Notes: a model not told the origin generated them from the sequence alone. Shown: positions 9,907 through 64,000, counted from the stretch's first letter. The stretch: DNA of 64,000 bases from Planctomycetota bacterium (GCA_046290465.1 JBKAGP010000001.1:1536001-1600000); one strand, 5' to 3'. A program made the numbers and translations.

Positions 9907-9968
9907 ACTGCGCCCCGGCGACCGCCGGAGCCCCGTGCGGATAGAACGTGCGGACAACCCGTTCGGAC

Positions 9969-48346: not shown

Positions 48347-50506
48347 CTACCGCACCTGGATGCGCAGCCCGTCGCTCGCCTGGTAGTCGAACGGCCGGAA
48401 CGCCTGCGCATACAGATCGCCGAGGAACGCCGGATCGTCCGGCAGCGGCACCGGGAACAAGAGGTCGCCGCCCGTCCCGATCGCAGCATACGTGATGACC
48501 GGTGTCACCAGCAGCGAGCACGGGAACCCGAACGGCTGCAGGCTAACGTTGGCCGGCGTCGTGCCGAGGGCCAGCAGCATCGGCGTATTCTGCGGCACGA
48601 ACGTGACCGTCACCGCGAAGTTGAGGTTGCCGGCAAACGGGTAGGGCGCCTCCAGGAACGCCGTCGCGCAGCTGGTGCCGTACGACACCGATTCGGCGTC
48701 GGCCGGATAGACGAACCGCGTGCCGCGGATCTGGCGCAGCGCCGAAGCGTTGTCGTAGGCGAGCAGGAAGTCCGGCTCCCCGGTCGGCTCGAAGCACATG
48801 CCGAGGCTGCCGTACGAACCGAGCACCTCCGAGTCGACGATCGCGCCGTGGCCGCCGAGGCGCGCCAGGTAGATCTCGGGCGTGAGGCCGGTCAGCACCG
48901 AGTAGGCCAGCAAGAAGTTGGATCCGGTCGCGTGGTCGGCAACGACCTCGCGCAGCTGCAGCTGCGGCCCCGCGGTCAGCGTGCGCACCTGGCTGCCGCT
49001 GCCGAAGTCGAACCCGCGCAGCACGTCGTTGAGCGGCGCCTCGCGCTGCCACACCAGCACCTGCCGCAACGCATGGTTGTCGTCGTAGGCGCCGGCGATC
49101 CGCGGCGCGCCGAGCTCGTCGGAGGTGTTGTCGTAGCCCACGTAGCCGGCGCTGGTGCCGGCCTGGGTGACGGTCGCGACCCGGATCTCATGGATCGCGC
49201 CGAGGTCCGTTCGCCACGCGACGCGCCACGGCTCGCCGTCGCGGCTCATCGGCATGACGTCTGGATCCCGCGACGCGTCGGTGACGGCGGAGCCATGCGG
49301 ATCGAAGAACTGCACGCCGGCGGTCGGGTTGGCGGCATCGATGACCGCGCACGTCACCTGCGGCCCGAGCCCGCTCGACCACGTCCAAGCCGTCAGCGCC
49401 TTGGTGCACGTTCCGAAGCCGCCGCCGACAACGCCACCACCCCACGAGACGCCGGACGAACCCGTCGCGAGCTGCACCTCGGTGCCGGCATTGTTCTGCA
49501 TCTGGTCGTCCCGCTGCACGTAGACGACCGGCAGCGAGAAGAACAGCACGTCCCGGTCGAAGGCGATCACGTAGGAGCGTGCCCCCTCGCAGTAGGCGAC
49601 ATCGACCTGCTTGATGAAGTAGCCCGACGCGTTGTCGATCCAGTGGTAGTTGAACCCGGTGAAGTCCTTCTTGCCGTAGAGCGAGAAGCCATCGGCATCC
49701 CCCAGCGCAAAGGTGCGCACGAACGTCACCACGACCTGGTCGAGCACGGTCGAACACGCCAGCTCGACCGAGGTCGCCGGCTCCCCGGCGAAGTTGGAGT
49801 TGATCAGCGCGTTGCCGATCAAGGGATCGATGGTCAGCGGAAACTGCGCGGCGTCGACGAACGACTGCGGCACGTGCAGGCGCACCAGCCCGCGCTCGGC
49901 GCTGGTCGCGATCTCGATGCGCTGGCCGACGGCGTCGTACGCAAAGGCCCGCCCGTAGCGCACCGTCGCCTCGCCATCGACCGAGAACACCAGGTCGCCG
50001 TGCTCCGCCGCGCGATCGGGCGTCGTCAGATCGCCCGCGATCCGGCCGGTCACGACCAGCTCGCCGCTGCCCGCCGGCCGCTGCGGGATCACGAACAGCT
50101 GCTCGACGCCTTCGGGGCGAATCTCGTAGACCTCGCGCGCATCGCGGTATCGGGTCTCGTAGCGATCCTCACTGGTCTCGGTGGCAACCGGCGCCAGCGA
50201 CAGCGGTTGCCCCCCGACCGTGATCGACGCCGTGCGCCAGCGCAGCGCCACCAGCTCGCGGTCGGCACCGCGGAAGGGATGGAACGTCAGACCATCGTGG
50301 AAGCTCGCCTTCCACGTCGGACCACCCGCCCACCAGCCGTATTCGGGCTGGCCCGCGGCGACGGTCCGGGTGTGCAGCGGCACGCAGCGTTCGGCCACGA
50401 CCTGCTGCACGCTCTGCAGCAGGCGGGAATCCGGTGCCTGCGCGGGCAGGCAGAACGCGAGAGCCAGGACGGCGAACAGGATGACGGGGATCTTGGGCAT
50501 GGGCAT
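48347..50506 (-). CDS. Secreted multi-domain protein with recurring C-terminal domain
   Basis: GGAG RBS, signal peptide CLPA|Q; N-domain ending FPLTIDP; C-terminus SYGTSC...PCSLLV...PVPLPDDPAFLGDLYAQA...SDGLRIQVR. Confidence 0.8.
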   Translation of the reverse strand: MPMPKIPVILFAVLALAFCLPAQAPDSRLLQSVQQVVAERCVPLHTRTVAAGQPEYGWWAGGPTWKASFHDGLTFHPFRGADRELVALRWRTASITVGGQPLSLAPVATETSEDRYETRYRDAREVYEIRPEGVEQLFVIPQRPAGSGELVVTGRIAGDLTTPDRAAEHGDLVFSVDGEATVRYGRAFAYDAVGQRIEIATSAERGLVRLHVPQSFVDAAQFPLTIDPLIGNALINSNFAGEPATSVELACSTVLDQVVVTFVRTFALGDADGFSLYGKKDFTGFNYHWIDNASGYFIKQVDVAYCEGARSYVIAFDRDVLFFSLPVVYVQRDDQMQNNAGTEVQLATGSSGVSWGGGVVGGGFGTCTKALTAWTWSSGLGPQVTCAVIDAANPTAGVQFFDPHGSAVTDASRDPDVMPMSRDGEPWRVAWRTDLGAIHEIRVATVTQAGTSAGYVGYDNTSDELGAPRIAGAYDDNHALRQVLVWQREAPLNDVLRGFDFGSGSQVRTLTAGPQLQLREVVADHATGSNFLLAYSVLTGLTPEIYLARLGGHGAIVDSEVLGSYGSLGMCFEPTGEPDFLLAYDNASALRQIRGTRFVYPADAESVSYGTSCATAFLEAPYPFAGNLNFAVTVTFVPQNTPMLLALGTTPANVSLQPFGFPCSLLVTPVITYAAIGTGGDLLFPVPLPDDPAFLGDLYAQAFRPFDYQASDGLRIQVR

Positions 50507-50899
50507 CTGCTCCGGTTGGGCGGGGTGACGAGGCGGGCGCCTCGCCGGAGATGCAGTGCCCGGTGCGTGGTCGGGCTGGACAGCCGATTCGCCGATCTCG
50601 CGGAGAATCTGCCGCAGCGATCGCGCTCGACGCATGCGCAAGGTCATGTGGCCCTCCCCCCAGTCGGCCGCCCGAGCGGCGCCTTGCTGCTCCGGCAACC
50701 GATCTCTCGACGACGCGCATGCCCTTCGTCGGCCGATCGACGCCCGGCAGGACATGGCGCCGATACGGTGACTCCGTCCATGGCGAGCTGCCGAGGTTCG
50801 GAATACAGAATCACACCGATCCCCCGCCAGACTCGATCCGCACGGAGCGCCTTACATCGAGCTGACCCGACGCCGCGAGCCCTGCAGTATGCATTCCTC

Positions 50900-51976
50900 A
50901 TGCCGTTCCACCACCTCGCACGCGCGCGCACACGAGCGCTCGCCGTCGCGCTGCTCGCACTCGCCTCCTGCACGTCGGACGCTCCGACCCGCCCAACGAC
51001 GACCGAGGTCGATCCGCGCATCTGGGCCATGCACCAGGCGCACAACGGCGACTACTGGTTTGGCAGCAACGGCGCCGGCGTCTACCGCTTCGACGGCGAG
51101 CAGGTCGCGCACTACGACACCCGAGACGGTCTCGCCGGCAGCCAGGTGCGCGGGATCTACGAGGACGTGCGGGGTCACCTGCTCGTTTCGACGACGCGCG
51201 GGGTCAGCAGGTTCGAGGACGGGAGGTTCGTAGCAGTGGAGTTCGTCGACGAGCCGACCCCGCTGGAGGACTGGGAGCTGCACGATGACGACCTCTGGCT
51301 GGTGTTCGGGCCGGGCGAACGCGGCCCCGCGCGCTACGACGGCGTCAAGCTGCACCACATGCAGCTGACCGAGAGCCCGGCGGCCGCGACGCGCCCTTCG
51401 CGCACCGAGCCGTTTCGGCTGGATCTGGCCAGTGTCTACAGCGTGCACGAGGATCGCCGCGGCCATCTGTGGTTTGGCACTGCCGGCCATGGTCTGTGCC
51501 GCTACGACGGCGAGTCGCTGGCGTGGATGTACGAGGAACATCTGACGACGACGCCGAGCGGTGGCGCGTTCGGCATCCGGTCGATCTTCGAAGATCGCCA
51601 CGGCGACTTCTGGATCTGCAATACGCGGCATCGCTTCGCCGTCGCGCCGGAGGTCGCGAACAAGGACGGGTTCACGGTGTTGCAGTACCAGACCAAGCCT
51701 GGCATGCCGAAGGCTGCCACGGACACGGACGAGAACTTCTTGTACTTCGCGTCCGTCGCGGAGGACGAGTCGGGCGCCCTGTGGTTTGCGAGTTCAGGGG
51801 ATGGCTTGCTGCGTCTCGCCGATGGCGAGGTCACGCGCTTCGCGCTGCCGGACGGAGCCTATGCGTGCTGCGTCATGATCGGCCAGGACGGCAGGGTGTG
51901 GGTCAGCACGATCGAACACGGTGTGTATGTGTTGGACGGGGATCGGCTCGAGCGGTTTCGGGGGCGTGTTGGATGA
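50900..51976 (+). CDS. Two-component-regulator-propeller (Reg_prop) repeat lipoprotein
   Basis: Repeats IYEDVRGHLL, VHEDRRGHLWFGT, IFEDRHGDFW, EDESGALWF; lipobox LASC. Confidence 0.85.
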   Translation: MPFHHLARARTRALAVALLALASCTSDAPTRPTTTEVDPRIWAMHQAHNGDYWFGSNGAGVYRFDGEQVAHYDTRDGLAGSQVRGIYEDVRGHLLVSTTRGVSRFEDGRFVAVEFVDEPTPLEDWELHDDDLWLVFGPGERGPARYDGVKLHHMQLTESPAAATRPSRTEPFRLDLASVYSVHEDRRGHLWFGTAGHGLCRYDGESLAWMYEEHLTTTPSGGAFGIRSIFEDRHGDFWICNTRHRFAVAPEVANKDGFTVLQYQTKPGMPKAATDTDENFLYFASVAEDESGALWFASSGDGLLRLADGEVTRFALPDGAYACCVMIGQDGRVWVSTIEHGVYVLDGDRLERFRGRVG

Positions 51977-52906: not shown

Positions 52907-53926
52907 ATGATCACCATCGTGGATGCGCTGAATGTCGCTGCCAACTGGCAGACGCGACAGCCGGATGGCACTCCGGGATCGACGGAACTCACCGCCGCCA
53001 ACGCAACCGGAACATCCTACCTGGGCACCGACCAGACCAGCATGCTGCTGACGGGTTCGACCTCGGCGTTGGACCACAGCATCCGCCGAACCCTGCCCGC
53101 CGTCGATGCTACAGTGTGGCCGGACCTCGCGATCGCAGTCCGCGCCGACCGCGAAGCAACCGGGTCCGATGCATCGCCGTTCTACCTGCGCCTGCGCGTC
53201 GGCAGCGCCGCCGTCGACCTCGACGACCCCGCGAACACCTGGCATCGCTACCTGCCGATCAAGGCCGTTGACACGTGGAACCCACTCCGCCTGTCACTGC
53301 ATGACCTACCGGCGAACATCCGTGACGCCATCACACAGGTCGAGATCACGTGCACGGACGCCAGCCGGGAGTTCGCGTGCCACCTCGACGACCTCAACCT
53401 GGTTCGCGACGAGCTGATCTCCGACGTCGACGCGGCGCTGCACGCCCTGCTGCACAACCAGTTGACCCTCACCGGCCTGGTGCCCGCGCTGGAGCTGGTG
53501 ACCGGCGCCGCGCTGCCCGCGAACCCGCGCCCCGCCTTCGCGATCGCCAACTACAAGTTGGAGTGGAACGAAGAGCGGACCAACCGGCAGCCGTCCTCGA
53601 GCGACTACGTCGACGACGGGTTCCGCCTCCGCCCCGACCGCATCGCCTACGTCGCCCACTATGCGATCCTGGCGCTGGCCGCAACCCGGGCCGAGCAGGC
53701 CGAGATGCTCGACTTCGCGTGCCAGGCCGTTCCGCCGCGCGCCACGCTCGTGGTGAACGACTACCGCGCGGATGCGTGGCACGTGCCAACGCCTTCGTTC
53801 CACGAGACTCCGTGGCCGGCGTTCTATCCGCAGCTCCACGTTGCGGCCATGAACTGGACGGAGATCGGAACCGCAACACCGGTACGTCCTACCCGCAACG
53901 TCCGCATCGAGGCGGAGGCGTTCTAG
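52907..53926 (+). CDS. Pvc16/Afp16-like (DUF4255) tail terminator/cap protein with an extra N-terminal beta-sandwich domain
   Basis: C-half LISDVDAALHALL...PAFAIANYKLEWNEER...P...AHYAILA...EQAEML resembles Pvc16_N; first gene before the sheath, the usual position. Confidence 0.65.
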   Translation: MITIVDALNVAANWQTRQPDGTPGSTELTAANATGTSYLGTDQTSMLLTGSTSALDHSIRRTLPAVDATVWPDLAIAVRADREATGSDASPFYLRLRVGSAAVDLDDPANTWHRYLPIKAVDTWNPLRLSLHDLPANIRDAITQVEITCTDASREFACHLDDLNLVRDELISDVDAALHALLHNQLTLTGLVPALELVTGAALPANPRPAFAIANYKLEWNEERTNRQPSSSDYVDDGFRLRPDRIAYVAHYAILALAATRAEQAEMLDFACQAVPPRATLVVNDYRADAWHVPTPSFHETPWPAFYPQLHVAAMNWTEIGTATPVRPTRNVRIEAEAF

Positions 53927-54387: not shown

Positions 54388-56496
54388 ATGACATTCATCG
54401 GTATCAACATCCGCGAGGTCGACGGCTCGGGCTCGCCGACCATCGTTGGTGCAGCAACGTCCATCGCCGGCTTCAACATCCTGACGCAACGGGGCGTGGC
54501 CAACACACCCATCCGCGTGAACAGCTACGAGGAGTTCGCGGAGCGTTTCGGCGGCTACATCGACGGTGCGTTCGGTGCCTATCTACTCCGCGGCTTCTTC
54601 CTGAACGGTGGCGCAACCGCGTATGTCAACCGGGTCGTTTCCAACGACGCCGTAACCGGACACGCCCCCGCCAGCATCACCCTCCAGGACGCGGCCCCGG
54701 CCGATACCCTCGTACTCGAAGCTGGCTACCTGGGACAACCGGACCCCGGCTCGTGGGGCGACCGCCTGCGCGTCGCCGTCACCCACACCGCCACCGCGAC
54801 GACGCGGCTACGCGAAACCGCCGCCGCCACGGTAACGGGAACGGTGGCGCTCGCCGCCGCCACCGACATGAGCGCCTTCGGACCGCTCACCCTTCGGATC
54901 GACGGCGAGACGACCGACACGGTCATCACATTCGAGGCCTCGGACTTTCCGAGCGCCGGCGCCGCCGCGGCAACGCGCGAGGAGATCCGGGATGCGATCA
55001 ACGCGCGTGGCAACCGGGTCGTCGCATCGCTCAACGGCGCCAACAACATCGTGCTGACCTCGACGGGCGAGGTCGCGAGCCTGAGCGGTGGCTGGACTAG
55101 CATCGAAGTGCGGGCGGTAAACGCCGTCCTCGGTTTCGCGGTCGCGCCGGCCGTCTTCGGCACCGCCGCGGTCCCTGCCGGAACGGGCGTTGCCCTGCAC
55201 AGCGTCGAGGGCTTCCAGATCGGAGACGCGATCCGCATTCGCGACACGACCACGCCCGCGAACACGGCCCTGGCGAAGCTGCTGACGGCCAACGAGACCA
55301 CCGGGGCCGTCACCTGGACGACGAACATCGCGGCAATCGCGGGATGGGATCTGCGTGCCATCGTCGTCGAGAACGTGCGCTTCGATCTGGCGATCGGCCT
55401 CGGCGAGCCTGATGGCGTCGTCGAAACGCTCACCGGACTGTCGATGGAGTCGGACATCGCCGACTACGCCGTCGCCCGAATCAACGATCGGATCACCGGG
55501 TCCCGCTACGTGATGGCAACGGACGCGGCCAGCGCCAGCCCGGCCGGTGCGGACCTCCCGGCGGAAACGGCCGGCGAGGTGACGTTCGATCCGGGGCGGG
55601 ACGGAGTGCCGACGGCCCAGGAGTTCATCGGCGACCCGGCGGCGCACACCGGTTTCTCCGCGTTCGACACCTTCGACGTGCAGCTGCTCACCTGCGAACG
55701 CACGGACAGTGGTATCGCACGCGCTGGCATGGACTACTGCGCCAATCGCGGCGACTGCACCTACGTGGGCGCCGTCCCCGAAGGCTATGTCGAGGTCGGC
55801 CAGGCGGGCGCCTACGGCCAGGGTCTGCAGGGCAGCAAGGTCTACGGCGCGCTCTATGGCCCTTGGGTGCGCGTCGTCGATCCGATCGGAGTAGGCGACA
55901 ACCCCGAACGCATCATCCCGCCCGTCGGCCACATCCTCGGCACCTTCGCACGCATCGACACCAACCGCGGCATCTGGAAGGCACCTGCGGGCGACGAGGC
56001 GAATCTGCGCGGCGTGCTCGATGTCACCTACCGGCTCAGCGACGCGGAACACACCGATCTGGTGGAGAACGGCAGCGTCAACGGCATCCGCTGGGTTCCG
56101 CGCTCGGGCATCGTCGTCGATGCGTCGCGAACCCTGAGCACCGATACCCGCTGGCTCTACGTGAACGTGCGACTGCTGTTCAACTTCGTCAAGAGCAGCC
56201 TGCGCGACGGGCTTCGCTGGGTCCGACAGGAACCCAACCGCGACACGCTGTGGAAGACCATCAAGTTCAACAGCGTGACGCCCTTCCTGACCCAGCTGTG
56301 GCGGCAAGGCGCCTTCGGCACCGGATCTCCCGAGGAGGTCTTCACGGTCACCATCGACGCGTCCAACAACCCGCCGTCAGAAGTCGACATCGGCAACCTC
56401 AACGTCGAGGTGCTGTTCTACCCGTCGCGTCCGGCAGAAAAGATCATCATCACCGTGGGGCAGCAGCAGAGCGGTGCGACCGCGACGGAGAGCTGA
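54388..56496 (+). CDS. Contractile tail sheath protein
   Basis: GINIREVD, FFLNGG..AYVNRV, PGSWG, YGALYGPWV, PPVGH, RGIWKAPAG, YVNVRLLF, EPN, GAF, RPAEKI. Confidence 0.95.
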   Translation: MTFIGINIREVDGSGSPTIVGAATSIAGFNILTQRGVANTPIRVNSYEEFAERFGGYIDGAFGAYLLRGFFLNGGATAYVNRVVSNDAVTGHAPASITLQDAAPADTLVLEAGYLGQPDPGSWGDRLRVAVTHTATATTRLRETAAATVTGTVALAAATDMSAFGPLTLRIDGETTDTVITFEASDFPSAGAAAATREEIRDAINARGNRVVASLNGANNIVLTSTGEVASLSGGWTSIEVRAVNAVLGFAVAPAVFGTAAVPAGTGVALHSVEGFQIGDAIRIRDTTTPANTALAKLLTANETTGAVTWTTNIAAIAGWDLRAIVVENVRFDLAIGLGEPDGVVETLTGLSMESDIADYAVARINDRITGSRYVMATDAASASPAGADLPAETAGEVTFDPGRDGVPTAQEFIGDPAAHTGFSAFDTFDVQLLTCERTDSGIARAGMDYCANRGDCTYVGAVPEGYVEVGQAGAYGQGLQGSKVYGALYGPWVRVVDPIGVGDNPERIIPPVGHILGTFARIDTNRGIWKAPAGDEANLRGVLDVTYRLSDAEHTDLVENGSVNGIRWVPRSGIVVDASRTLSTDTRWLYVNVRLLFNFVKSSLRDGLRWVRQEPNRDTLWKTIKFNSVTPFLTQLWRQGAFGTGSPEEVFTVTIDASNNPPSEVDIGNLNVEVLFYPSRPAEKIIITVGQQQSGATATES

Positions 56497-56544: not shown

Positions 56545-57015
56545 ATGCCACAAGAAGGCGACATCTGGGCAGGTTATCAAACCAGCGAATTCGTGTTCGT
56601 CATCGACGGGATGGAGAGCCCGGGAGTCACCAAGATTTCGGGGCTGACGGAGTTCAACATCGAGGTCATCGAACAGCCCGACGGCGGCAGCATGACCGTG
56701 CACAAGCTCGCCGGAAACAAGGTGACCTACGACACGTTGACCGTCGAGCGCCGCATGGATGGCAGCCCGGAGGATCAGCGCTTCAAGGACTGGCTCGAAG
56801 AGACCTGGAAGCTCAACCGTGCAACGCAGGGCGGCTCGAACGTTCGCAAGGACGGAATGATCATCAAGCGTCACCGCGGCGAAGACGTACTGACGTTCGC
56901 CTTCTACGGCGCATGGATCAAGTCGTCGAAGTTTTCGGACTTCGAAGCCGGCACCACGAACCTCCTGACCCAAACGCTCGAACTCGAGCACGCCGGCCTC
57001 GAGCGCGTCGCCTGA
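56545..57015 (+). CDS. Tail tube protein (T4 gp19 / Afp1-5 family)
   Basis: FVFVIDG...ISGL...HKLAG..TYDTLTVER...WLE...RKDG.I...AWIKS...LELEHAGLER; 156 aa directly after the sheath. Confidence 0.92.
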   Translation: MPQEGDIWAGYQTSEFVFVIDGMESPGVTKISGLTEFNIEVIEQPDGGSMTVHKLAGNKVTYDTLTVERRMDGSPEDQRFKDWLEETWKLNRATQGGSNVRKDGMIIKRHRGEDVLTFAFYGAWIKSSKFSDFEAGTTNLLTQTLELEHAGLERVA

Positions 57016-57064: not shown

Positions 57065-57856
57065 ATGACCGCAACTACCCCAAGCATCACGACCAACGCC
57101 CGCGAATACGCGTTCACCCTGCCCATCGGGGTGCAGACCGAAGACGGACAACTGCACCGCGACGGCGCACTTCGCAAGATGAACGGGCACGACGAGGCGA
57201 TCCTCGCCGACCCCCGCTACCAGCGAAACGGCGGCCAGCTCGTGACCGAACTGCTCCATAGCTGCGTGACCGGCATCAGCGGCATCGAGCAACTGACGAA
57301 GTCGACGTTCGCGTCGATGTACTCGGCGGATCGCAACTTCCTGCTGCTCAAGATCCGTAGCTTCACGTTCGGAGCCGAGCTGCAGGCCAACTACACGTGC
57401 CCCTCCTGCGGAAACACGATGCAGGTGTACGAGAACCTCGAAGAGCTGCCCGTTCGCGAGCTCGCGGGTGGCGAACTGCCGGATCGCATCGAGGTCGAAC
57501 TGGTCGATGGCTACGTCGATCGCGACAACAAGACGCACACGCAGCTGGAGCTGCGGCTGCCGACCGGTGCAGACGAACAGGCTGTCGCCGCGCAGATGCG
57601 GAAGAACGCGTCGCTCGGCAAGAACGCGCTGCTCGCGCGCTGCATCGTGCGGTTCAGCGACCTCGAGCAGAAGCGCGTCAAGGCGCTGGGCCCGCGAATC
57701 ATGTCGGACCTGACCATGAGCGACCGGCGCTTGATCGATCGCTCACTCAACGCCGGCGCACCGGGGATCGACCTGATCCGTGATCACGAGTGCGTGCACT
57801 GCGGCCACGAGTTCAAAGCAAGCATGGACATGACCCATTTTTTGGAACTGGAGTAG
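57065..57856 (+). CDS. Tail assembly chaperone / T4 gp26-like protein with two CxxC knuckles
   Basis: FTLPIG...LHRDG.LR, ADRNFLLLKIR, CPSCG, LRLPTGADE, CVHCGHEF; internal duplication; follows the tube gene. Confidence 0.75.
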   Translation: MTATTPSITTNAREYAFTLPIGVQTEDGQLHRDGALRKMNGHDEAILADPRYQRNGGQLVTELLHSCVTGISGIEQLTKSTFASMYSADRNFLLLKIRSFTFGAELQANYTCPSCGNTMQVYENLEELPVRELAGGELPDRIEVELVDGYVDRDNKTHTQLELRLPTGADEQAVAAQMRKNASLGKNALLARCIVRFSDLEQKRVKALGPRIMSDLTMSDRRLIDRSLNAGAPGIDLIRDHECVHCGHEFKASMDMTHFLELE

Positions 57857-58023
57857 GTGAGGAAGGCCTCCAGGAGGAGGTCTTCTTCCTCGCTTATCAC
57901 CTCCACTGGTCGTGGTCCGAAGTCATGGCGTTGACCAGCGGCGATCGCCGTCGCTACGTCGACCTGCTCGTCAAGCAGATCGAGCGGGAGAACGCCCAGA
58001 TCGAGGCCGCCGGAAAACGTTGA
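57838..58023 (+). CDS. DUF6760-like (P2 GpE'-like) segment, probably a -1 frameshift extension of the upstream chaperone
   Basis: LQEEVFFLAYHLHWSWSEVMAL...RRRYV in the -1 frame, entered at slippery T TTT TTG (57838-57844); no credible own start before the conserved motif. Confidence 0.75.
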   Translation, partial: FFGTGVGEEGLQEEVFFLAYHLHWSWSEVMALTSGDRRRYVDLLVKQIERENAQIEAAGKR

Positions 58024-58026
58024 TCG

Positions 58027-59853
58027 ATGCCCTTTGCTCTCCTTCTGCAGAAAGCGCTCGAACCGCTCGTCAAGGGCAGTCGTGCGCTTACGCCGTGGGT
58101 TGAGCTCGTCTGGACCGAGGCGCTGCTGATCCGGCGAGCACGCAGCGCGTTCCTGGTGCACTGGTTCGGGGAACGCCTGCCGCTAGCCGGCTCCTCGATC
58201 CGCATCACCATCGCCAACCTGCCCGCGTTGGCGACTCGCTATCGCGAGGTGCTTGCCGGCTCGCGCTTCCGTGCCGAGAGCCCGAGCCTCGCCGAACCTC
58301 TTGCCGGGCTAGCCGGCAACCTGGCCGGCACGATCCTGTCTCCCGGCGGTGCAATCGCCTTCGCGTTTGCTGCCGTCCGCTTCCTGTGGCGAGGCGGTGG
58401 CGCGCTGGTCACCATCCTGCAGGTGCTCGCCGGCCTGATCGCAGGGCCGGTCCTCACGACCGTGGGCCTCGTCGGCGGCGCGCTCGCTCCTCTGGGCGGC
58501 TTGATCGGTATCTCAGTCAGCGCCTCCCGGAATCCGGTCCTCATGGAGCTGTCCCGGCTGCTCGAGTCCTCGGCGAGGATGATCCCGGCGCTCAACGGGC
58601 TCATCGACCAGTTGCTCGGACCGCGTTCCGGTGTTCGCAATCCGCTCCTGCGGCGGCTGCTCAAGGTCTTCGACAGCGTGGCTGGCCTGCTCGCGCAGGC
58701 CATGGGCGCCGTCGCGATCATCGTGACGCGACTCGGGCCACTGATCATCCCCTGGACGGCCCAGGTCCTGGCGTTCAGGCGCCTGTTCCAGGCTGTCGCC
58801 GACCTGATCGGCGAGATGATCACCTCGGCGGTAGCTCGCGTGCAATCGCTCCTGCAGGGCAAGTCGCCGCTCTACGTCCTCCGCTTCTACTTCGACATCC
58901 TGGCCGCGATCGAACGCGCCCTGCCGCGCATGTTCGTGCACGTAGCGCGGCTCCTGATCCGCGCGACGGCGCTACTGCTGATCGACGTCCTGCGCTATCT
59001 GGCGAATTTCTCGACGTGGATCAACGGGATGCGCAAGCACGTGCTCGGCCATTTCCTCAACCACTACGTACTGCGGCAGATCCTGGCAGCGGTTGAGCAG
59101 ATTCAGAACATCATCAGCGTCTTCGGGCCACTGGTGAGTTCCAGCCCCAGCCCTCCGAGCAGCGGCAGCTCGTTGCCGAGCGTGCCGCTGGCGCCACCGC
59201 CACCGCGGGCGCCTCAGCTGCCGACGGTCAAGCAGGTGCGCAGCCAAGCCGGCGGCGCCCCACCGTTCGAACTGACGGCCGAGGCCATCGACAAGGTGGC
59301 CAATTTGATCCCGCCGGGCATCATCATGTCGCTGTTCAGATTCGACGCCGACACCGAGAAGCGCATTGAGCAGATGCGGCTCGCACCGCCGAGCATCTTC
59401 GGTCGCGAGCGTGCGCGGATCCGCCGCGAACTGGCGGCCCGCGGACGCGGCCCGACGACCGGCGACGCGTTCAAGCAGATCCGTCGCGAGGAGATCCGCC
59501 TCCGGCAGCTGCTGTTCCACGTTGTCGGAACGATCCTCCCGCCGCGCCTCCGGGCCCAGCACTTCCCGCCGCTGCTCGAGGCCTTCCGCGACATCGAGCA
59601 CTACGTCTACGAAGGCCGGCGCGGCCCGCGCCCCGCGACCCCGAAGCCCGACCGCTTTCCGGTTCGCGAACTGCCCAACAACGGCCTGCTGTTCCCGGCC
59701 GTGGACACGTTGACCATCGAAGCGGTCGGGTGGGAACGCGACGAGGTCGAGACGTTCCGCGACCAGCTTGTCCGGTCCCTGGGCCGGGCCCCCTATTCGC
59801 CCGATGGCGACCGCTCCTCATCGTCCTCCCCCAGCCCCTTGTCCCTCGCCTGA
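58027..59853 (+). CDS. Large helical/hydrophobic protein 1 in the tape-measure position of the CIS operon
   Basis: 608 aa; ~60-aa Gly/Ala/Leu hydrophobic stretch; Pro-rich linker; C-terminal VDTLTIEA; 3 nt after the previous stop. Confidence 0.75.
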   Translation: MPFALLLQKALEPLVKGSRALTPWVELVWTEALLIRRARSAFLVHWFGERLPLAGSSIRITIANLPALATRYREVLAGSRFRAESPSLAEPLAGLAGNLAGTILSPGGAIAFAFAAVRFLWRGGGALVTILQVLAGLIAGPVLTTVGLVGGALAPLGGLIGISVSASRNPVLMELSRLLESSARMIPALNGLIDQLLGPRSGVRNPLLRRLLKVFDSVAGLLAQAMGAVAIIVTRLGPLIIPWTAQVLAFRRLFQAVADLIGEMITSAVARVQSLLQGKSPLYVLRFYFDILAAIERALPRMFVHVARLLIRATALLLIDVLRYLANFSTWINGMRKHVLGHFLNHYVLRQILAAVEQIQNIISVFGPLVSSSPSPPSSGSSLPSVPLAPPPPRAPQLPTVKQVRSQAGGAPPFELTAEAIDKVANLIPPGIIMSLFRFDADTEKRIEQMRLAPPSIFGRERARIRRELAARGRGPTTGDAFKQIRREEIRLRQLLFHVVGTILPPRLRAQHFPPLLEAFRDIEHYVYEGRRGPRPATPKPDRFPVRELPNNGLLFPAVDTLTIEAVGWERDEVETFRDQLVRSLGRAPYSPDGDRSSSSSPSPLSLA

Positions 59854-59859
59854 TTCGTC

Positions 59860-61878
59860 ATGCCGCTCGATCTCACGGCAGCCGTAGCAGCCTTCGCCGA
59901 CCGCTTCGCCCTGCAGCGACGCGGGATCGCGGATGCGTTCAAGGTGATCGAGAAGTGGCTGAAGGCGCGCAAGAAGCAGGCGGAGGCCCTCGAACTGGCC
60001 AGCCGCCGGTACCCGGCGATCGACTTTCACTTCGGCGGTCAGGTCATGCTGCGCCTCGACCGCAGCCAGCACCGGACCCTGGCCCGAGGAGAGCCGAGCG
60101 ACTTCGTGCGATCCCTGGAACGCGGCGGACGGGAGTTTGTCGACGGCATCGCCTACGTCGGACGCGCGGCGAGCCAGGAGTGGCTGCTACCCAACCTCGC
60201 GACGCGGCTACGAAGGATCTCCGACCTGGTGGTTGCCTCGATGGCCCGCTTCGCCACCAGCCGACTGGCCAGCGACACCTTCGACCCCGATCGCCGCACG
60301 GCATCGGACAGCATCGGGCTCGCCGCCCGCGGCTGGCGCGCGCTCGCGGAGAGCAATCGCCAGCTGCAGCTGTTCGTCGTTCGCCTGCACCTAGCCAAGT
60401 TCCTCGTCCAGCTCGACGAGACGCCGCAGGAAGAGCTGGAGCGCAAGAAGCGCGCGGCGTCCTCTCCCCCCAAACCATCCGTGAGCTTCGCCGACCGGCT
60501 CGGCGAAGCAGCGCGCTACCTGACGGCGGGCGTGTTGCTGCTGCCGATCCTGCCGCAGTACCTGCAGCGGCTGTTCGAGGCAGTCTGGCTGCGTGGCCGG
60601 CTGACCTTGCTCGACGAGTTCGCGGGATACGAACGGCGGGTCTTCCGCTTCCGTACCCGGATCGTCGACACGCTCTTCCGGGAACTGCCCAAACTGGCCA
60701 CCAAGGCCTTCCGCTTCGTGCTCGCCGCGAAGTTCGTTATCAGCTCGAACCTCGACTACTTCGTTTCGTTCGCGCGCATTTACGGCTCGGTCGTGCTGCG
60801 AGAGGTCCGCCGGTTCTCGCACGAGCTGCAGCAGTACCTCGAGTTCTTCCGCTCCCTGGTCGAAACCACGCGCCGGATCCTCGAGCGGGTGATGAACTTC
60901 GACCTGATGCCGTTCCTGATCGCGCCGCTCGGTCTGCCGGGCGCCATCCTGCACGCACTCGGCCACATACCCAGACTCACCATTGGGGATCTGGTCGACA
61001 CCGCCGGCCACATCGTGCGAATCCGAGCCCGCGACAGCCTGACGAACTTCATCATGGCGGTGCGCATCGCCATGCTCGCCGGCGGCCTCGCAACCCAGCA
61101 GCTGTATTGGCGGCACGTCAAGGCCAAGCTCGACCTGCTGCAGGCCATCGTCAGCATCCTGTTCCAGGCGCCGGCGCCGTACCCGGCGGAAACGCGCCGG
61201 CCCAGGCTTCCGAATCGATTCCCCAACCTGTTCAACGCTTTCTTCGGGCCGGCCGGCCGTTCGTTCGTGCGCCACATGGAGGCGATGGGACGCGGTCTCG
61301 CGGCGTCGGTCGGGACCACGCTACGCGCCGGGGAACGGGTGCTGCGCGACCTCGCGCTGCTGTTCGACCACCAGGCCGTAGTCGCCTCGCTGCTCGTCGA
61401 CCCGGCTGTACTGCGTGCGTTGGATTCACGCAGCGCCGCCACGAGCGATCGGCTGTTCGGGGACCAGATCCGGGAGCTGCGCCAACGTGTCGCCACCGCC
61501 AGAGGCGACACGGTCGCCGGCAGCTTCGAACGTTGGCTCGTGAGCAGCGGGTTCGAGATGGTCGCCGCCGCCATCCCGGTCTACCTGAGTGAGATGCAGC
61601 GGTTCTGGCGCCGCGAGGCCGCCGTCGGTGCGGAACCGACCGTCGAACTGTCGGAGCTCGAACGCATGCAGCCGGTGGCCCGGCAACGGCTCGCCCGCCG
61701 CCTCGGTCTCGGCCGCGTGCGACTGGATGCCGTGACCATCGACGCCCAGGACCGCGAGCTCAGCAGTGACCTGGTCGCGCGCATTACGGACCGATTCCAA
61801 ACCGTCATCCGCACTGCATACCGAGTAGGCCGCGCGCGCCTGCTCTCCGTGCAGGGCAACCAGGCAGGAGCGACCTAG
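59860..61878 (+). CDS. Large helical protein 2 (apparent paralog of protein 3)
   Basis: 672 aa; GVLLLPIL, RGLAASVGTTLRAG, SDRLFG, FERWLVSSG, C-terminal VRLDAVTIDA. Confidence 0.75.
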   Translation: MPLDLTAAVAAFADRFALQRRGIADAFKVIEKWLKARKKQAEALELASRRYPAIDFHFGGQVMLRLDRSQHRTLARGEPSDFVRSLERGGREFVDGIAYVGRAASQEWLLPNLATRLRRISDLVVASMARFATSRLASDTFDPDRRTASDSIGLAARGWRALAESNRQLQLFVVRLHLAKFLVQLDETPQEELERKKRAASSPPKPSVSFADRLGEAARYLTAGVLLLPILPQYLQRLFEAVWLRGRLTLLDEFAGYERRVFRFRTRIVDTLFRELPKLATKAFRFVLAAKFVISSNLDYFVSFARIYGSVVLREVRRFSHELQQYLEFFRSLVETTRRILERVMNFDLMPFLIAPLGLPGAILHALGHIPRLTIGDLVDTAGHIVRIRARDSLTNFIMAVRIAMLAGGLATQQLYWRHVKAKLDLLQAIVSILFQAPAPYPAETRRPRLPNRFPNLFNAFFGPAGRSFVRHMEAMGRGLAASVGTTLRAGERVLRDLALLFDHQAVVASLLVDPAVLRALDSRSAATSDRLFGDQIRELRQRVATARGDTVAGSFERWLVSSGFEMVAAAIPVYLSEMQRFWRREAAVGAEPTVELSELERMQPVARQRLARRLGLGRVRLDAVTIDAQDRELSSDLVARITDRFQTVIRTAYRVGRARLLSVQGNQAGAT

Positions 61879-61879
61879 C

Positions 61880-63736
61880 ATGGACGAAGACGAAGACGAC
61901 ATGCTCTTCGGCCAGCTCGGCCTGCTGCTGCACCAGCTCCGCTTCTCGCGGCGAGCCCTTGAGGACATCGAGCGCAGCACGGCCACGTACGGCAGCTTCG
62001 CGTTCACCAGCGCGCTCTCGTCCGGGGCGAGCTTCGGTGCACCGCCGCTCAGCGCGACCGGCGCGCTGCGCGTGCACGTATCGAACCTCACCGACCTGGT
62101 ACCGGGTGGCGGCCTGTTCGGCTTCATCGGCAGCCTGCTCGGCGGCATCGGCCGCTTCTTCGGCGGTCTGATCGGCGGCATCGTCGGAGGCACGGTGAGC
62201 GGTATCACGCTGCCGTACCTGATCTACGAGGTCGGGCGCATCAGCGACAACATCCGAAACGCGCTGCGGTTCCTCGGCCTGAACCTCTCCGACAGCGACG
62301 ATCCGCAGTCGCGGCGATCGTCTTCGAACACGCAGCCCGCCGCGAACGAGACGCTGGTCGGACAACTTCGCGGCATCCGATCGATCGTCGATGCGCTGAC
62401 CGCGCTGTTCACCGCGGCATCGAGCGGTGGCGACGCAGCCGCCAGCAACGCCACCAGTGCCAGCACGGCCCGTGGCCAGCAGTGGATGGCCGTGCTCAAC
62501 AGCACGCGCGCGCTGATGGACGGAATCGACCGGGTCATCCGGGGGATGATCCTGTTGGTCCCAATCCTGATCGGCAGCCTGGCCGTTCTGATCCAGCGAC
62601 TCGACAGCATGAAGCTCGCGCTCGTCGAGATCATGCAGTTTGCGGTTCGCAACACGTTCCTGTTGCGCGGGGTAATCCTGACGACAATCTTCGATCTGAT
62701 CGCGTCTGGAGCCCGACTAGCGGCCAGCCTGCTCGGCATCATCGCCAAAGCGGTGGAGACGATCCTCGGCTCGGTGTTCCGGATGATCGGCCACGTGCTC
62801 GACGGCGCGATCGCCGCGTTCCGGTTCCTGGCCACCGGCATCCAGGGAACGATCGACGGGTTGCTGCGATGGCTGGTCGACACCCTCGGCGCAGCACTGG
62901 TCTTCCTCGGCGACCTGCGCATCTTCCGGGTCCTGGTGCACATCGTCCGCATCATCCCGGCCGTGCTGCCACCGCTCTACGAGCTCATCCGCGGCTCCTC
63001 CCCTCCGCTGACCCCTGCGCAGCTCAATGACCTGCGCATCGCGGCCAACCTCACGCTCCCCGGCCCCACCACGACAGGTTCGGCTTCGATCCCGTTCCCT
63101 CCGATGCCGAACCCGGCAACGCTGCTGGCGAGCCCCGCATCTGTGGCGACCCTACGTCGTGAGCTCGACCAGGCCACGCGCGGACTCACCGGCGAAGTCG
63201 GCGGTGTCTTCCGCACCGGTGCCGGATCGCTGAACGCACTCGGCCAGCGCATCGATGTCGCCGCGCGAAGCGAGAGCCTGTTCAGCGGCGAGCGCATCCG
63301 TGACCTGCTCGACAACGTCAGCACCCGCAGCGACCAGCTCGCGGGCGCGCTCAACTCGGCCCGCGATGCGGCGGCCAACCGACCGGCGACGGGGCTCGAA
63401 CGGATCGCGGAGGCCTATGAGCGCTGGCTCAGCGGCAGCGGCCTGGACAGCCTACTCGACAACCTCGAGCGTCACTTCGCCGCGCGGCCGCCCGATCACA
63501 GCGATGTCACGGCCCAGGCCCTGGCCACCGGCGCCACACGGCCACTCGCCACGGTCGACATCGAAGACGTCACGATCGTGATCAAGGCGCCCGAGCAGAC
63601 GCCGGCACCACGTGACCCCGACGAACCCATGGTGGTCCGTGCCGACATTGGCGAGTCCACCCTGCAACCCTCCGTCCACGATCTCGACCGCACGCTCCAC
63701 CGCTGGCAGGAACGCGGTGGCTCTTTCCTGACCTAG
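61880..63736 (+). CDS. Large helical/hydrophobic protein 3, tape-measure-like
   Basis: 618 aa; GGGLFGFIGSLLGGIGRFFGGLIGGIVGG; GMILLVPIL, RGLTGEVGGVFRTG, SDQLAG, YERWLSGSG, C-terminal VDIEDVTIVI. Confidence 0.75.
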   Translation: MDEDEDDMLFGQLGLLLHQLRFSRRALEDIERSTATYGSFAFTSALSSGASFGAPPLSATGALRVHVSNLTDLVPGGGLFGFIGSLLGGIGRFFGGLIGGIVGGTVSGITLPYLIYEVGRISDNIRNALRFLGLNLSDSDDPQSRRSSSNTQPAANETLVGQLRGIRSIVDALTALFTAASSGGDAAASNATSASTARGQQWMAVLNSTRALMDGIDRVIRGMILLVPILIGSLAVLIQRLDSMKLALVEIMQFAVRNTFLLRGVILTTIFDLIASGARLAASLLGIIAKAVETILGSVFRMIGHVLDGAIAAFRFLATGIQGTIDGLLRWLVDTLGAALVFLGDLRIFRVLVHIVRIIPAVLPPLYELIRGSSPPLTPAQLNDLRIAANLTLPGPTTTGSASIPFPPMPNPATLLASPASVATLRRELDQATRGLTGEVGGVFRTGAGSLNALGQRIDVAARSESLFSGERIRDLLDNVSTRSDQLAGALNSARDAAANRPATGLERIAEAYERWLSGSGLDSLLDNLERHFAARPPDHSDVTAQALATGATRPLATVDIEDVTIVIKAPEQTPAPRDPDEPMVVRADIGESTLQPSVHDLDRTLHRWQERGGSFLT

Positions 63737-63750
63737 CACGACGACTCCCC

Positions 63751-64000
63751 ATGGCTCGAGGATACTTAGCAAACTGGCTGGCGACGCCGCCCCTCGTCTT
63801 CCGGTTCCAGTTCAACCCAGATCTGCTCCAGGACAAGAAGGCCTGGAAGTATGAAGAGCAACCGCCCGTGCAGTGGGGCTTCGACCAAATCGACGAGGCT
63901 TCCGGTTTCGGCATCGTTCCGGCCCTCTTCCGTGACGTCAAGGACTGGGGCAGTCTGTTACTGAAGACGCGCTGGCTCAAGGCCAAGGAGGGGCAGCAGC
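63751..64000 (+). CDS. CIS tube-initiator / Afp7(Pvc7)-like protein, 3' end outside window
   Basis: MARGYLANWLATPPLVFRFQFNPDLLQDKK...; the FQFNP motif is typical of this family; missing from the supplied ORF track because it is truncated. Confidence 0.65.
   Translation, partial: MARGYLANWLATPPLVFRFQFNPDLLQDKKAWKYEEQPPVQWGFDQIDEASGFGIVPALFRDVKDWGSLLLKTRWLKAKEGQQ

Follow-up and report, generated by a model that had tools for sequence, protein, structure and literature searches.

A conserved trio of tape-measure-like paralogs behind the tail assembly chaperone gene of a contractile tail-like cluster

Gene content of the locus

The window (the whole stretch of 64,000 nucleotides that was analysed) ends within a contractile tail-like gene cluster, whose genes follow in the order sheath, tube, chaperone, three tandem genes referred to below as P1, P2 and P3 (the trio), Afp7-like, LysM, gp27-like, gp5-like, gp25 and gp6. 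The features around the trio are listed in Table 1. A syntenic homolog of the sheath gene is present in related loci, and the PHROG families matched by the 0-frame product of the chaperone gene are baseplate hub and tail assembly chaperone. The original prediction described three tightly packed ORFs of 608, 672 and 618 aa in the tape-measure slot of a contractile injection system (CIS). Their coordinates and plus strand were confirmed, and so was the spacing of 3, 6 and 1 nt, which separates the stop of the conserved −1-frame extension of the chaperone from the P1 ATG, the P1 stop from P2, and the P2 stop from P3, respectively. The slot is also as predicted: the trio lies between the tail assembly chaperone gene and the baseplate-hub genes.

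Table 1. Positions of the trio and neighboring features, counted from the first nucleotide of the window.
Feature	Position	Strand	Evidence
Tail sheath gene, 702 aa	54388..56496	+	Pfam Phage_sheath_1C E 2.9e-9, Phage_sheath_1 E 1.7e-6
Inner tube gene, 156 aa	56545..57015	+	Pfam Phage_T4_gp19 E 2e-16
Tail assembly chaperone, 0-frame product, 263 aa	57065..57856	+	Pfam T4_baseplate E 1e-12, Phage_TAC_7 E 1.6e-5
T_TTT_TTG, candidate −1 slippery heptamer	57838..57844	+	Sequence; X_XXY_YYZ register with the chaperone frame
Putative −1-frame extension of the chaperone, ~60 codons	57845..58023	+	Open −1 frame, stop 58021-58023
P1, tape-measure-like paralog 1, 608 aa	58027..59853	+	ORF, profile homology to P3
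P2, tape-measure-like paralog 2, 672 aa	59860..61878	+	ORF, full-length profile homology to P3
P3, tape-measure-like paralog 3, 618 aa	61880..63736	+	ORF, best conserved of the trio
Afp7-like tube-initiator/hub gene, 245 aa	63751..64488 (window ends at 64000)	+	Pfam CIS_tube E 2.4e-8

Downstream of the trio, the gp27-like and gp5-like genes are separate ORFs in two frames. The cluster also contains one Baseplate_J gene and a gene whose 1357-aa product carries the TIGR02242 tail domain, and a sigma-54-type AAA+ protein is encoded approximately 5 kb downstream. No separate canonical tape-measure gene was found in the cluster, which was scanned downstream as far as a gene for a 182-aa protein; the other downstream genes of this region encode hub, LysM, gp27-like, gp5-like, gp25, gp6 and Afp12-like proteins or are small. 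Among the genes scanned, none matched Afp15-like or Afp16-like proteins, the small ORFs that separate the gp5-like gene from gp25 had no match in PHROG or NCBIfam, and the DUF4157 domain was absent from P1–P3 and from the scanned neighbors.

The T_TTT_TTG heptamer lies 12 nt ahead of the chaperone stop. The TTTTTTR word occurs four times in the 64-kb window versus 0.33 expected. All 38 related loci have either TTTTTTA or TTTTTTG at the equivalent position, and the peptide encoded by the −1 extension (..FFLAYHLHW..EQIERENA..) is kept in each of them. From this conserved pattern we infer −1 frameshifting in the chaperone gene. In lambda (G/GT) and P2 (E/E') a slippery chaperone pair likewise precedes the tape-measure gene, and the arrangement here is the same as judged from the genes alone. 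The Afp14-type genes of Afp and PVC come after the baseplate genes, unlike the slot occupied by the trio. The order of the cluster matches that of myophages such as phage G and Mu, in which, as in others, the chaperone pair is followed by the tape measure and the baseplate (PMC8570332). A frameshifting chaperone of the G/GT type, here in a tail cluster without a head, would suggest that these particles are closer to the tails of Mu/P2-like myophages than to Afp/PVC.

Conservation and paralogy of P1, P2 and P3

The slot is covered in 38 related loci, and in every one it is filled by P1-, P2- and P3-family genes in this order. For the seven loci without a tblastn match to P2, the P2-family ORF was found by profile (E from 2e-135 to 4e-63). 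The phyla with trio loci are Acidobacteriota, Actinomycetota, Myxococcota, Chloroflexota and Proteobacteria. Junctions between the trio genes mostly range from −20 to +23 nt. The P3 family comprises 114 proteins at E ≤ 0.001, query included, and an exhaustive profile search at the same threshold yielded 230 representatives for P2. No relative of P3 was found by tblastn in 50,697 phage records. P3 has the most conserved sequence of the trio: its 108 homologs are 31–52% identical to the window protein. Divergence is faster in P1 (25–34% identity) and P2 (21–40%).

The likeness of P2 and P3, originally noticed by eye, is recovered by BLASTP (131 aa, 28% identity, E = 2e-5). The family profiles of P2 and P3 align by hhalign at 99.4% (E = 5.5e-22, 516 columns), and this alignment covers the N-terminal block, the C-terminal block and the beta motif. 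Judged from their sequence profiles, P2 and P3 are full-length paralogs. The paralogy of P1 had been predicted to be weaker, and it is invisible to BLASTP. Its profile aligns with that of P3 at 96.9% (E = 1.9e-10, 190 collinear columns) and with that of P2 at only 56.7% (E = 1.1e-4, 53 N-terminal columns), whereas reversed-profile controls gave E-values of 0.0027–0.0065. By the profile comparison, P1 is a more distant paralog. The predicted relationship among the three thus appears in the profiles, both for P2 with P3 and for P1 with P3.

Across 36 clusters, the protein lengths are 578 ± 32 aa for P1, 631 ± 38 aa for P2 and 613 ± 14 aa for P3. Their covariation is modest (pairwise r 0.48–0.53). 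Phylogenetic contrasts of the lengths gave r values of 0.44, 0.16 and 0.47, the covariation of P1 and P3 being absent after this correction. The summed length of the trio is 1898 aa here and approximately 1750–1950 aa across the clusters.

The lengths bear on a serial arrangement, in which the three proteins, each perhaps as a homotrimer, would lie end to end and set a tube of approximately 300–400 nm by their summed length. This sum resembles the non-enzymatic part of Tme (2247 aa in all; PMC11126660), and long CIS exist, namely CIS-Sc with 268 nm (PMC12237407) and SLP with approximately 300 nm (PMC13277306). The conserved N- and C-terminal blocks could dock head to tail, but similar ends are explained as well by binding to symmetric partners, and the lengths covary positively with no mutual compensation. 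To our knowledge, no tape measure is a chain of separate proteins, and none was found in literature searches; we consider the serial ruler improbable.

Helical architecture and weak matches to tape measures

The AF2 models of P1 (pLDDT 67.9) and P3 (pLDDT 70.5) are nearly all helix, with helices of 65–77 residues. Both models share the same layout: long helices at approximately 200–275, 280–345 and 347–371 are followed by a Pro-rich linker, a C-terminal helical part, the unstructured beta motif and the last helix. The helical bodies and Pro-rich linkers proposed originally are thus seen in the models, the linkers as helix-free segments at 371–400 in P1 and 372–411 in P3. Conserved blocks are present at both ends of each paralog, helix-strand at the N-terminus and strand-helix at the C-terminus. 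Within each family the C-terminal parts are conserved; no enzyme domain was found in P1–P3.

The Gly-rich hydrophobic stretches expected in P1 (99–164) and P3 (97–115, 216–238) are present. Strongly hydrophobic 19-mers number several in P1 and in P3, where they are conserved across the families, and just one in P2, and P1 is the most hydrophobic protein of the trio. The lack of a Gly-rich hydrophobic segment in P2 suggests a division of labor. The conserved 19-residue segments of P1 and P3 could also belong to a membrane anchor or firing complex of a cell-bound CIS, located outside the lumen and comparable in role to CisA of Streptomyces; some CIS do need membrane partners (PMC12237407). We regard this as very improbable, given that the trio follows a G/GT-type chaperone and fills the slot up to the hub genes, that very long amphipathic helices make up most of the proteins, that P2 is nearly devoid of membrane-like segments and that the database matches, weak as they are, point to tape measures.

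The P1–P3 proteins of the window match no curated tape-measure family of Pfam or NCBIfam. None of the 38 P1-family members matched a tape-measure Pfam family, and PhageMin_Tail (PF10145) was matched by only one of the 29 P3-family members (E = 9.4e-5). In PHROG, tape-measure families are matched by 19 of the 29 P3-family members, with a best E of 9.5e-9, and by 12 of the 38 P1-family members; the annotation 'tail length tape measure protein' applies to 12 of the 15 families matched by the P3 family and to all five matched by the P1 family. For the P2 family such matches were limited to 2 of 42 members. The monocin tape measure FtbJ is matched by the profiles of P1 (E = 1.3e-6) and P2 (E = 0.0015), while designed helical bundles reach 5.8e-8. 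Since designed helical bundles score equally well or better, the weak PHROG and PDB matches may be driven by composition in long hydrophobic helices. The language-model neighbor of P3 is a T4_Tape_measure cluster near T4 gp29 (score 0.93), which serves as a lead only. Confident matches of P1–P3 to unrelated known families were not found.

The tripartite pore, which the original prediction also entertained, gained no support. A Foldseek search of the P3 model, which is of moderate quality, against the PDB gave no match with E ≤ 0.001, the tripartite pore protein AhlB being at rank 24 (E = 0.92, TM 0.13). Because of the only moderate quality of the model, this result is weak evidence against a ClyA-like fold.

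Possible roles of the trio in the particle

The tape measure is regarded as a homotrimeric ruler encoded by one gene. P1–P3 share helicity and hydrophobic stretches with T4 gp29, P2 gpT and monocin FtbJ, and with Afp14, Pvc14 and Alg14 of eCIS, and, the Afp14-type genes of Afp/PVC apart, also the slot. In contrast to these single-gene tape measures, here there are three diverged paralogous genes, whose products match no curated tape-measure family and have no enzymatic domain. Each paralog is of the size of T4 gp29 (~600 aa), which has 590 aa for a 92.5-nm tail (PMC8570332). Alg14 acts as a ruler in AlgoCIS (10.64898/2026.05.27.728243), and FtbJ is a trimer with the C-terminus anchored in the tip (PMC11830787). 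The PDB entries of solved tape measures (FtbJ, 80-alpha gp57 and gp20 of 8zdo) contain three chains each.

The trio may best be read as a triplicated tape-measure-like lumen protein, which would probably form a 1:1:1 hetero-oligomer. Of the originally predicted triplicated or hetero-oligomeric tape measure, the paralogs in the slot are borne out and make it the favored reading; the hetero-oligomer is suggested by three old copies, always inherited together, of a usually single gene, so that the inner core probably consists of three different chains. We assign a probability of about 0.5 to this explanation as a whole, in which P1–P3 are ancient paralogs of one tape-measure-like protein, the particle is an eCIS or tailocin of lineage II type, and the trio works by the scheme outlined below.

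Two further arrangements would use the same genes differently. Each particle might contain a homotrimer of only one paralog, so that three particle subtypes would arise, matched in length but distinct in the protein they eject. Paralogs this similar in length would indeed give equal tails, and the solved tape measures are homotrimers (FtbJ, 80-alpha gp57, gp20 of 8zdo; PMC11830787). Strict co-retention and fixed order across great phylogenetic distances, with tight translational coupling, fit an obligate set better, and the loss of the Gly-rich hydrophobic segment in P2 points to division of labor rather than interchangeable rulers, to which we give little credence.

Alternatively, P3 could be the sole tape measure, and P1 and P2 tape-measure-derived lumen cargo or a translocon ejected into the membrane. 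It also counts against the favored reading that in related CIS a tape-measure-like protein in or near the slot can be an effector and not a ruler, as are Tme (PMC11126660) and Sle1 (PMC13277306), and that CIS-Sc, which lacks a tape-measure gene altogether, is uniform in length (PMC12237407). P3 adjoins the hub genes and is the best conserved in both sequence and length (SD 14 aa), whereas P1 and P2 diverge faster and P1 is the most hydrophobic. Tme and Sle1 are helical, coiled-coil, partly hydrophobic CIS-loaded proteins with remote similarity to tape measures, and P1–P3 are likewise helical and partly hydrophobic; tme sits immediately upstream of the baseplate genes (PMC11126660). However, in Tme of S. 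davawensis a single chain of 2247 aa combines DUF4157 with an endonuclease at its C-terminus, both lacking in P1–P3, and Sle1 of S. lividans, whose gene lies ahead of the sheath gene, has a DUF4157 protein as its partner, none being found for P1–P3. The C-terminal functional domains of these effectors are variable, the C-termini of P1–P3 conserved. Moreover, all three proteins keep tape-measure-like length and similar end motifs. P1 and P2 are missing from none of the loci, with architecture and order unchanged throughout, and therefore behave as core parts. One ruler with two cargo proteins is thus rather unlikely.

For a hetero-oligomeric tape measure, the following scheme can be proposed. 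The chaperone would be made in two forms, short and −1-frameshifted long, as in lambda G/GT and P2 E/E', and would keep the long hydrophobic helical chains soluble and recruit tube subunits. The translationally coupled genes would supply the three chains in approximately equal amounts, to be joined in the tube lumen, most likely as a heterotrimer. The C-terminal ends, alike in the three proteins, would be placed at the three-fold hub and spike, and the N-terminal ends, also alike, at the far end of the tube, the trio serving both as a scaffold for a tube of approximately 95–130 nm and as its ruler. Contraction would expel the trio, and P1 and P3 may then enter the target membrane with their hydrophobic helices, those of the Gly-zipper kind among them, as ordinary tape measures may do after ejection. 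We entertain only tentatively, and with odds clearly below even, a stricter version with an obligate heterotrimer as the ruler, one chain coming from each of the paralogs, which split before the spread over five phyla, similar N- and C-terminal docking blocks that keep the chains in register, and a three-component channel in the target membrane after firing, two of its chains having Gly-zipper hydrophobic helices and one lacking them. Were the obligate heterotrimer true, it would be the first tape measure shown to consist of different chains; a conserved three-gene set would in itself show that the tail core can be built from diverged chains, and it may offer a route to length tuning and cargo loading in engineered injection particles.

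The architecture had originally not been recognised from Afp/PVC/MAC. It may already be on record in part, as unnamed subtype-specific genes are mentioned by Chen et al. 2019 (PMC6899500). In their account of lineage II eCIS, afp14 is absent, two or three conserved subtype-specific genes have no known domains, and the VgrG of subtypes IIa–c is divided between gp27 and gp5 ORFs (PMC6899500). The present cluster likewise has a split VgrG, a single afp11, an Afp12-like gene and no afp14. The genera of subtype IIb include Corallococcus, Lysobacter, Sorangium, Sphingomonas and Streptomyces (PMC6899500, Table S3), and P3 homologs are found in the same genera. Subtype IIb would further entail the absence of a PAAR gene (afp10) and the presence of an AAA+ ATPase (afp15) and a cap (afp16), of which the last two had no match among the scanned genes. 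By the match to the text description, we infer that the trio represents the lineage II subtype-specific genes and that the cluster belongs to subtype IIb. That description assigns these genes no function, nor does it mention paralogy among them or connect them with a frameshifting chaperone (PMC6899500). The trio would thus be a candidate ruler for lineage II eCIS, said to lack afp14. Hundreds of loci reside in culturable soil bacteria (Lysobacter, Myxococcus, Corallococcus and Streptomyces), in which this role is directly testable.

Locus organization and the end of the chaperone gene

The three tandem tape-measure-like ORFs P1, P2 and P3 lie in a window with a G+C content of about 70%, within a contractile tail-like cluster (see the table). 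In the DNA beyond the window end P3 is followed by genes for CIS_tube (Afp7-like), a small LysM protein, gp27-like and gp5-like VgrG halves, gp25, Baseplate_J (gp6), a 1357-aa phage-tail-domain/propeller-repeat protein and a 182-aa protein. Among the genes downstream of P3 through the 182-aa gene there is no tape-measure candidate, and the scanned genes include no Afp15-like ATPase. The 339-aa gene matched nothing in Pfam, PHROG, NCBIfam or PDB sequences; it may encode a cap or terminator.

Features of the cluster (window coordinates; L004 is the DNA stretch running past the window end, with L004:751 equal to window position 63751)
Feature	Position	Strand	Remarks
339-aa gene	52907-53926		directly upstream of the sheath gene; kept in related loci
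Sheath gene	54388-56496	+	upstream of P1
Tube gene, gp19-type	56545-57015	+	upstream of P1
263-aa chaperone gene	57065-57856	+	Pfam T4_baseplate and Phage_TAC_7
P1	58027-59853	+	ORF, 608 aa
P2	59860-61878	+	ORF, 672 aa
P3	61880-63736	+	ORF, 618 aa
VgrG halves, gp27-like then gp5-like	L004:1699-3740 (64699-66740)		beyond the window; two overlapping ORFs in different frames

The two frames of VgrG do not stem from a sequencing error. Chen et al. 2019 present the split as a trait of lineage II subtypes; their text reports it for subtypes IIa–c and describes lineage II eCIS as lacking afp14 and carrying two or three conserved genes that are subtype-specific and of unknown function (PMC6899500). 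Table S3 of the same paper places subtype IIb in genera that hold P3 homologs (PMC6899500). By the criteria in the text of that paper, the cluster appears to fit subtype IIb.

Reg_prop beta-propeller repeats occur in two large proteins, of 1042 aa (window 48848-51976) and 1357 aa (L004:6434-10507). Since the latter is an Afp12-like baseplate protein, the propellers may serve to bind the target. Also beyond the window, a few kb 3' of the cluster, the stretch L004:13073-16931 encodes a VWA-domain protein of 890 aa and a sigma-54-interaction-type AAA+ protein of 369 aa.

In the window the chaperone gene ends with CAT TTT TTG GAA CTG GAG TAG. This includes the heptamer T_TTT_TTG (57838-57844) in the X_XXY_YYZ register, 12 nt 5' of the stop codon, and the −1 frame stays open as far as 58023, an extension of roughly 60 codons that leaves 3 nt to the ATG of P1. 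Four TTTTTTR heptamers were observed in the window vs 0.33 expected; the other TTTTTTG heptamers are at 9968 (−), 19424 (+) and 19758 (+). A heptamer stands at the same place in all 38 related loci (TTTTTTA in 33, TTTTTTG in 5), the chaperone stop and P1 keep a conserved distance of about 170–200 nt, and the −1 peptide (..FFLAYHLHW..ERR.YV.LL.EQIERENA..) is strongly conserved among these loci. Such conservation suggests −1 frameshifting in the chaperone gene. A slippery site followed by a −1 extension is the arrangement of G/GT in phage lambda and of E/E' in phage P2. In myophages, as described in the text of one study, the tape-measure gene is directly 3' of the chaperone pair (PMC8570332). 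The literature searched contained no paper on a frameshifting chaperone in a contractile injection system.

Paralogy and distribution of the trio

The original prediction described P1–P3 as apparently paralogous proteins in the tape-measure slot, with weaker similarity for P1. By BLASTP, P2 and P3 match only over 131 C-terminal residues (28% identity, E 2e-5), and P1 has no significant match to either. Profiles of the P1, P2 and P3 families are decisive for the relatedness. The P2 and P3 profiles align over 516 columns (99.4%, E 5.5e-22), from the N-terminal helix through the C-terminal beta motif, and a separate second comparison agrees. P1 and P3 share 190 collinear columns (P1 173-373 on P3 157-367; 96.9%, E 1.9e-10), and the P1–P2 match is weak (53 collinear N-terminal columns, 56.7%, E 1.1e-4); reversed-profile controls reached E 0.0027–0.0065 at best. 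The AlphaFold2 models of P3 (pLDDT 70.5, 109-sequence alignment) and P1 (pLDDT 67.9, 38 sequences) follow a common plan: an N-terminal helix, a short strand region, hydrophobic helices and three long helices at nearly equal residues (197-273, 278-344 and 347-371 in P3; 206-276, 281-345 and 347-370 in P1). The chain then runs through a Pro-rich linker into a C-terminal helical part and closes with the beta motif, in an unstructured stretch, and one more helix. The family profiles together with the matching models confirm the paralogy, P1 included.

The P3 search yielded 114 proteins at E <= 0.001, the query counted, all of about 600–650 aa and none of them named; hosts include Lysobacter, Sphingomonas, Corallococcus, Myxococcus, Sorangium, Streptomyces, Geodermatophilus and Chloroflexi. 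For P2, a word-index search returned only one homolog, which reflects a sensitivity limit, given that an exhaustive profile search with P2 and one homolog recovered 230 representatives. Scanning species-representative genomes with the P3 alignment identified 40 loci in Acidobacteriota, Actinomycetota, Myxococcota, Chloroflexota, and Alpha- and Gammaproteobacteria. Corresponding scans of genome and metagenome contigs with the P2 alignment found no relative, the back-translated patterns being too specific.

According to tblastn with the window proteins, the gene order is the same throughout the related loci. After setting aside two of the 40 loci cut by contig ends, genes of the P1, P2 and P3 families, in that order, fill the slot between the chaperone and Afp7-like genes in 38 of 38. 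Seven of these had no tblastn match to P2, and in each of the seven the profile identifies an ORF of the P2 family (E 2e-135 to 4e-63). In locus L010 both P1 and P2 are split between frames, in L036 P3 is split, and in L033 P3 is short. Gaps or overlaps between the trio genes are mostly −20 to +23 nt. The ORFs, the profiles and the 38 loci bear out the observation of three tandem paralogs in the tape-measure slot.

No P2 was found in 60 genomes drawn from the genus, family and order to which the window belongs, and the window's cluster groups with Lysobacter loci in the tree built from sheath, tube, chaperone and Afp7. Therefore the cluster is patchy and probably both acquired horizontally and mobile over evolutionary time.

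Similarity to tape measures

The position, chaperone, length and architecture of P1–P3 are all as expected of a tape measure, and sequence similarity, though weak, points the same way. The trio has no match in Pfam or NCBIfam, curated tape-measure families included. Matches to PHROG tape-measure families are marginal for P1 (E 0.0016) and P3 (E 0.01), and those of the family members are almost exclusively to such families. In a PDB sequence search, the P1 and P2 profiles matched the monocin tape measure FtbJ, reported in the text of its description as a 622-aa trimer that its C-terminal helices anchor to the tip (PMC11830787); designed helical bundles reach equally high scores in this search. 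The P3 family matched only apolipoproteins and designed bundles among PDB sequence profiles, and Foldseek with the P3 model found nothing in PDB at E <= 0.001, only generic coiled coils. In a language-model search, P3 has a T4_Tape_measure cluster of 590 aa among its neighbours (score 0.93, 140 shared features), to be taken only as a lead; the best P2 score, 0.83, is within chance.

A tblastn search with P3 against 50,697 phage records gave no match. This result counts against a tape measure, as do the unmatched curated families, the scores of the designed bundles and the generic Foldseek outcome. Two IMG/VR 'provirus' records carry a homologous tail-like cluster. The longer one was rejected as evidence for a head-tail virion: its sole capsid gene is 27 kb off and on the other strand, and the interval includes genes for a transposase, an RHS-repeat protein, an SNF2 helicase and GH25. 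In the Streptomyces-like record G061 (L050:904-7536), which IMG/VR labels provirus, the genes just 5' of the cluster encode an RHS-repeat protein of 2210 aa, an SNF2 helicase and a GH25 lysozyme, the only capsid gene being on the opposite strand at 27 kb.

Tape-measure-related effectors occur in related Streptomyces systems; in a reading of the trio as one ruler and two cargo proteins, the cargo would be of that kind. The text on Tme places its gene in the slot before the baseplate genes (PMC11126660), and that on Sle1, upstream of the sheath gene (PMC13277306). Both effectors have DUF4157 links and variable functional C-termini, whereas P1–P3 have neither, and we regard the cargo reading as rather unlikely. 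CIS-Sc is described as having no tape-measure gene (PMC12237407). No description of the trio or its paralogy was found in the literature searched; the figures of Chen et al. and the supplements of the Nagakubo papers may show the genes.

Possible arrangement of the three chains

Solved tape measures among the matched PDB entries are trimers, with three chains per entry. P1, P2 and P3 could contribute one chain each to a heterotrimer, an arrangement that fits because the paralogs are equal-sized, translationally coupled, always co-retained and similar in their end blocks. The conserved ends would then engage symmetric partners, which would be the hub trimer for the C-terminal ends and either the chaperone or the distal tube end for the N-terminal ones. 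Alternative homotrimers would share the threefold form of the solved structures; next to the constant co-retention of all three genes, we consider them improbable.

Scaled by T4 (92.5 nm for 590 aa, as given in the text of PMC8570332) or by the eCIS fit (0.2156 nm per residue, as given in the text of preprint 10.64898/2026.05.27.728243), about 600 aa predict a tube of ~95–130 nm, and the 1898-aa sum, as for a serial ruler, ~300–400 nm. Lengths are 578±32 aa for P1, 631±38 for P2 and 613±14 for P3, based on the 36 clusters left after removal of five loci whose genes are broken or truncated. Pairwise length correlations are 0.48–0.53 in this set, and 0.44, 0.16 and 0.47 by phylogenetic contrasts (34 tips, two further loci with truncated sheath genes dropped). 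The covariation is weakly positive, not compensatory, and too weak for a choice between parallel and serial arrangements; we give the serial ruler little credence.

The original interpretation, a triplicated or hetero-oligomeric tape measure or else lumen-loaded proteins forming a membrane channel, finds partial support: the paralogous trio in the tape-measure slot stands. A membrane anchor, as a further reading of the trio, is highly improbable. The trio is best read, with moderate confidence, as a triplicated tape-measure-like core, probably hetero-oligomeric, in a lineage II tail-like particle that is widespread. Complex prediction for the N-terminal halves of P2, P3 and P1, run without controls, scored 0.03 against a mark of 0.32 and speaks neither for nor against binding.
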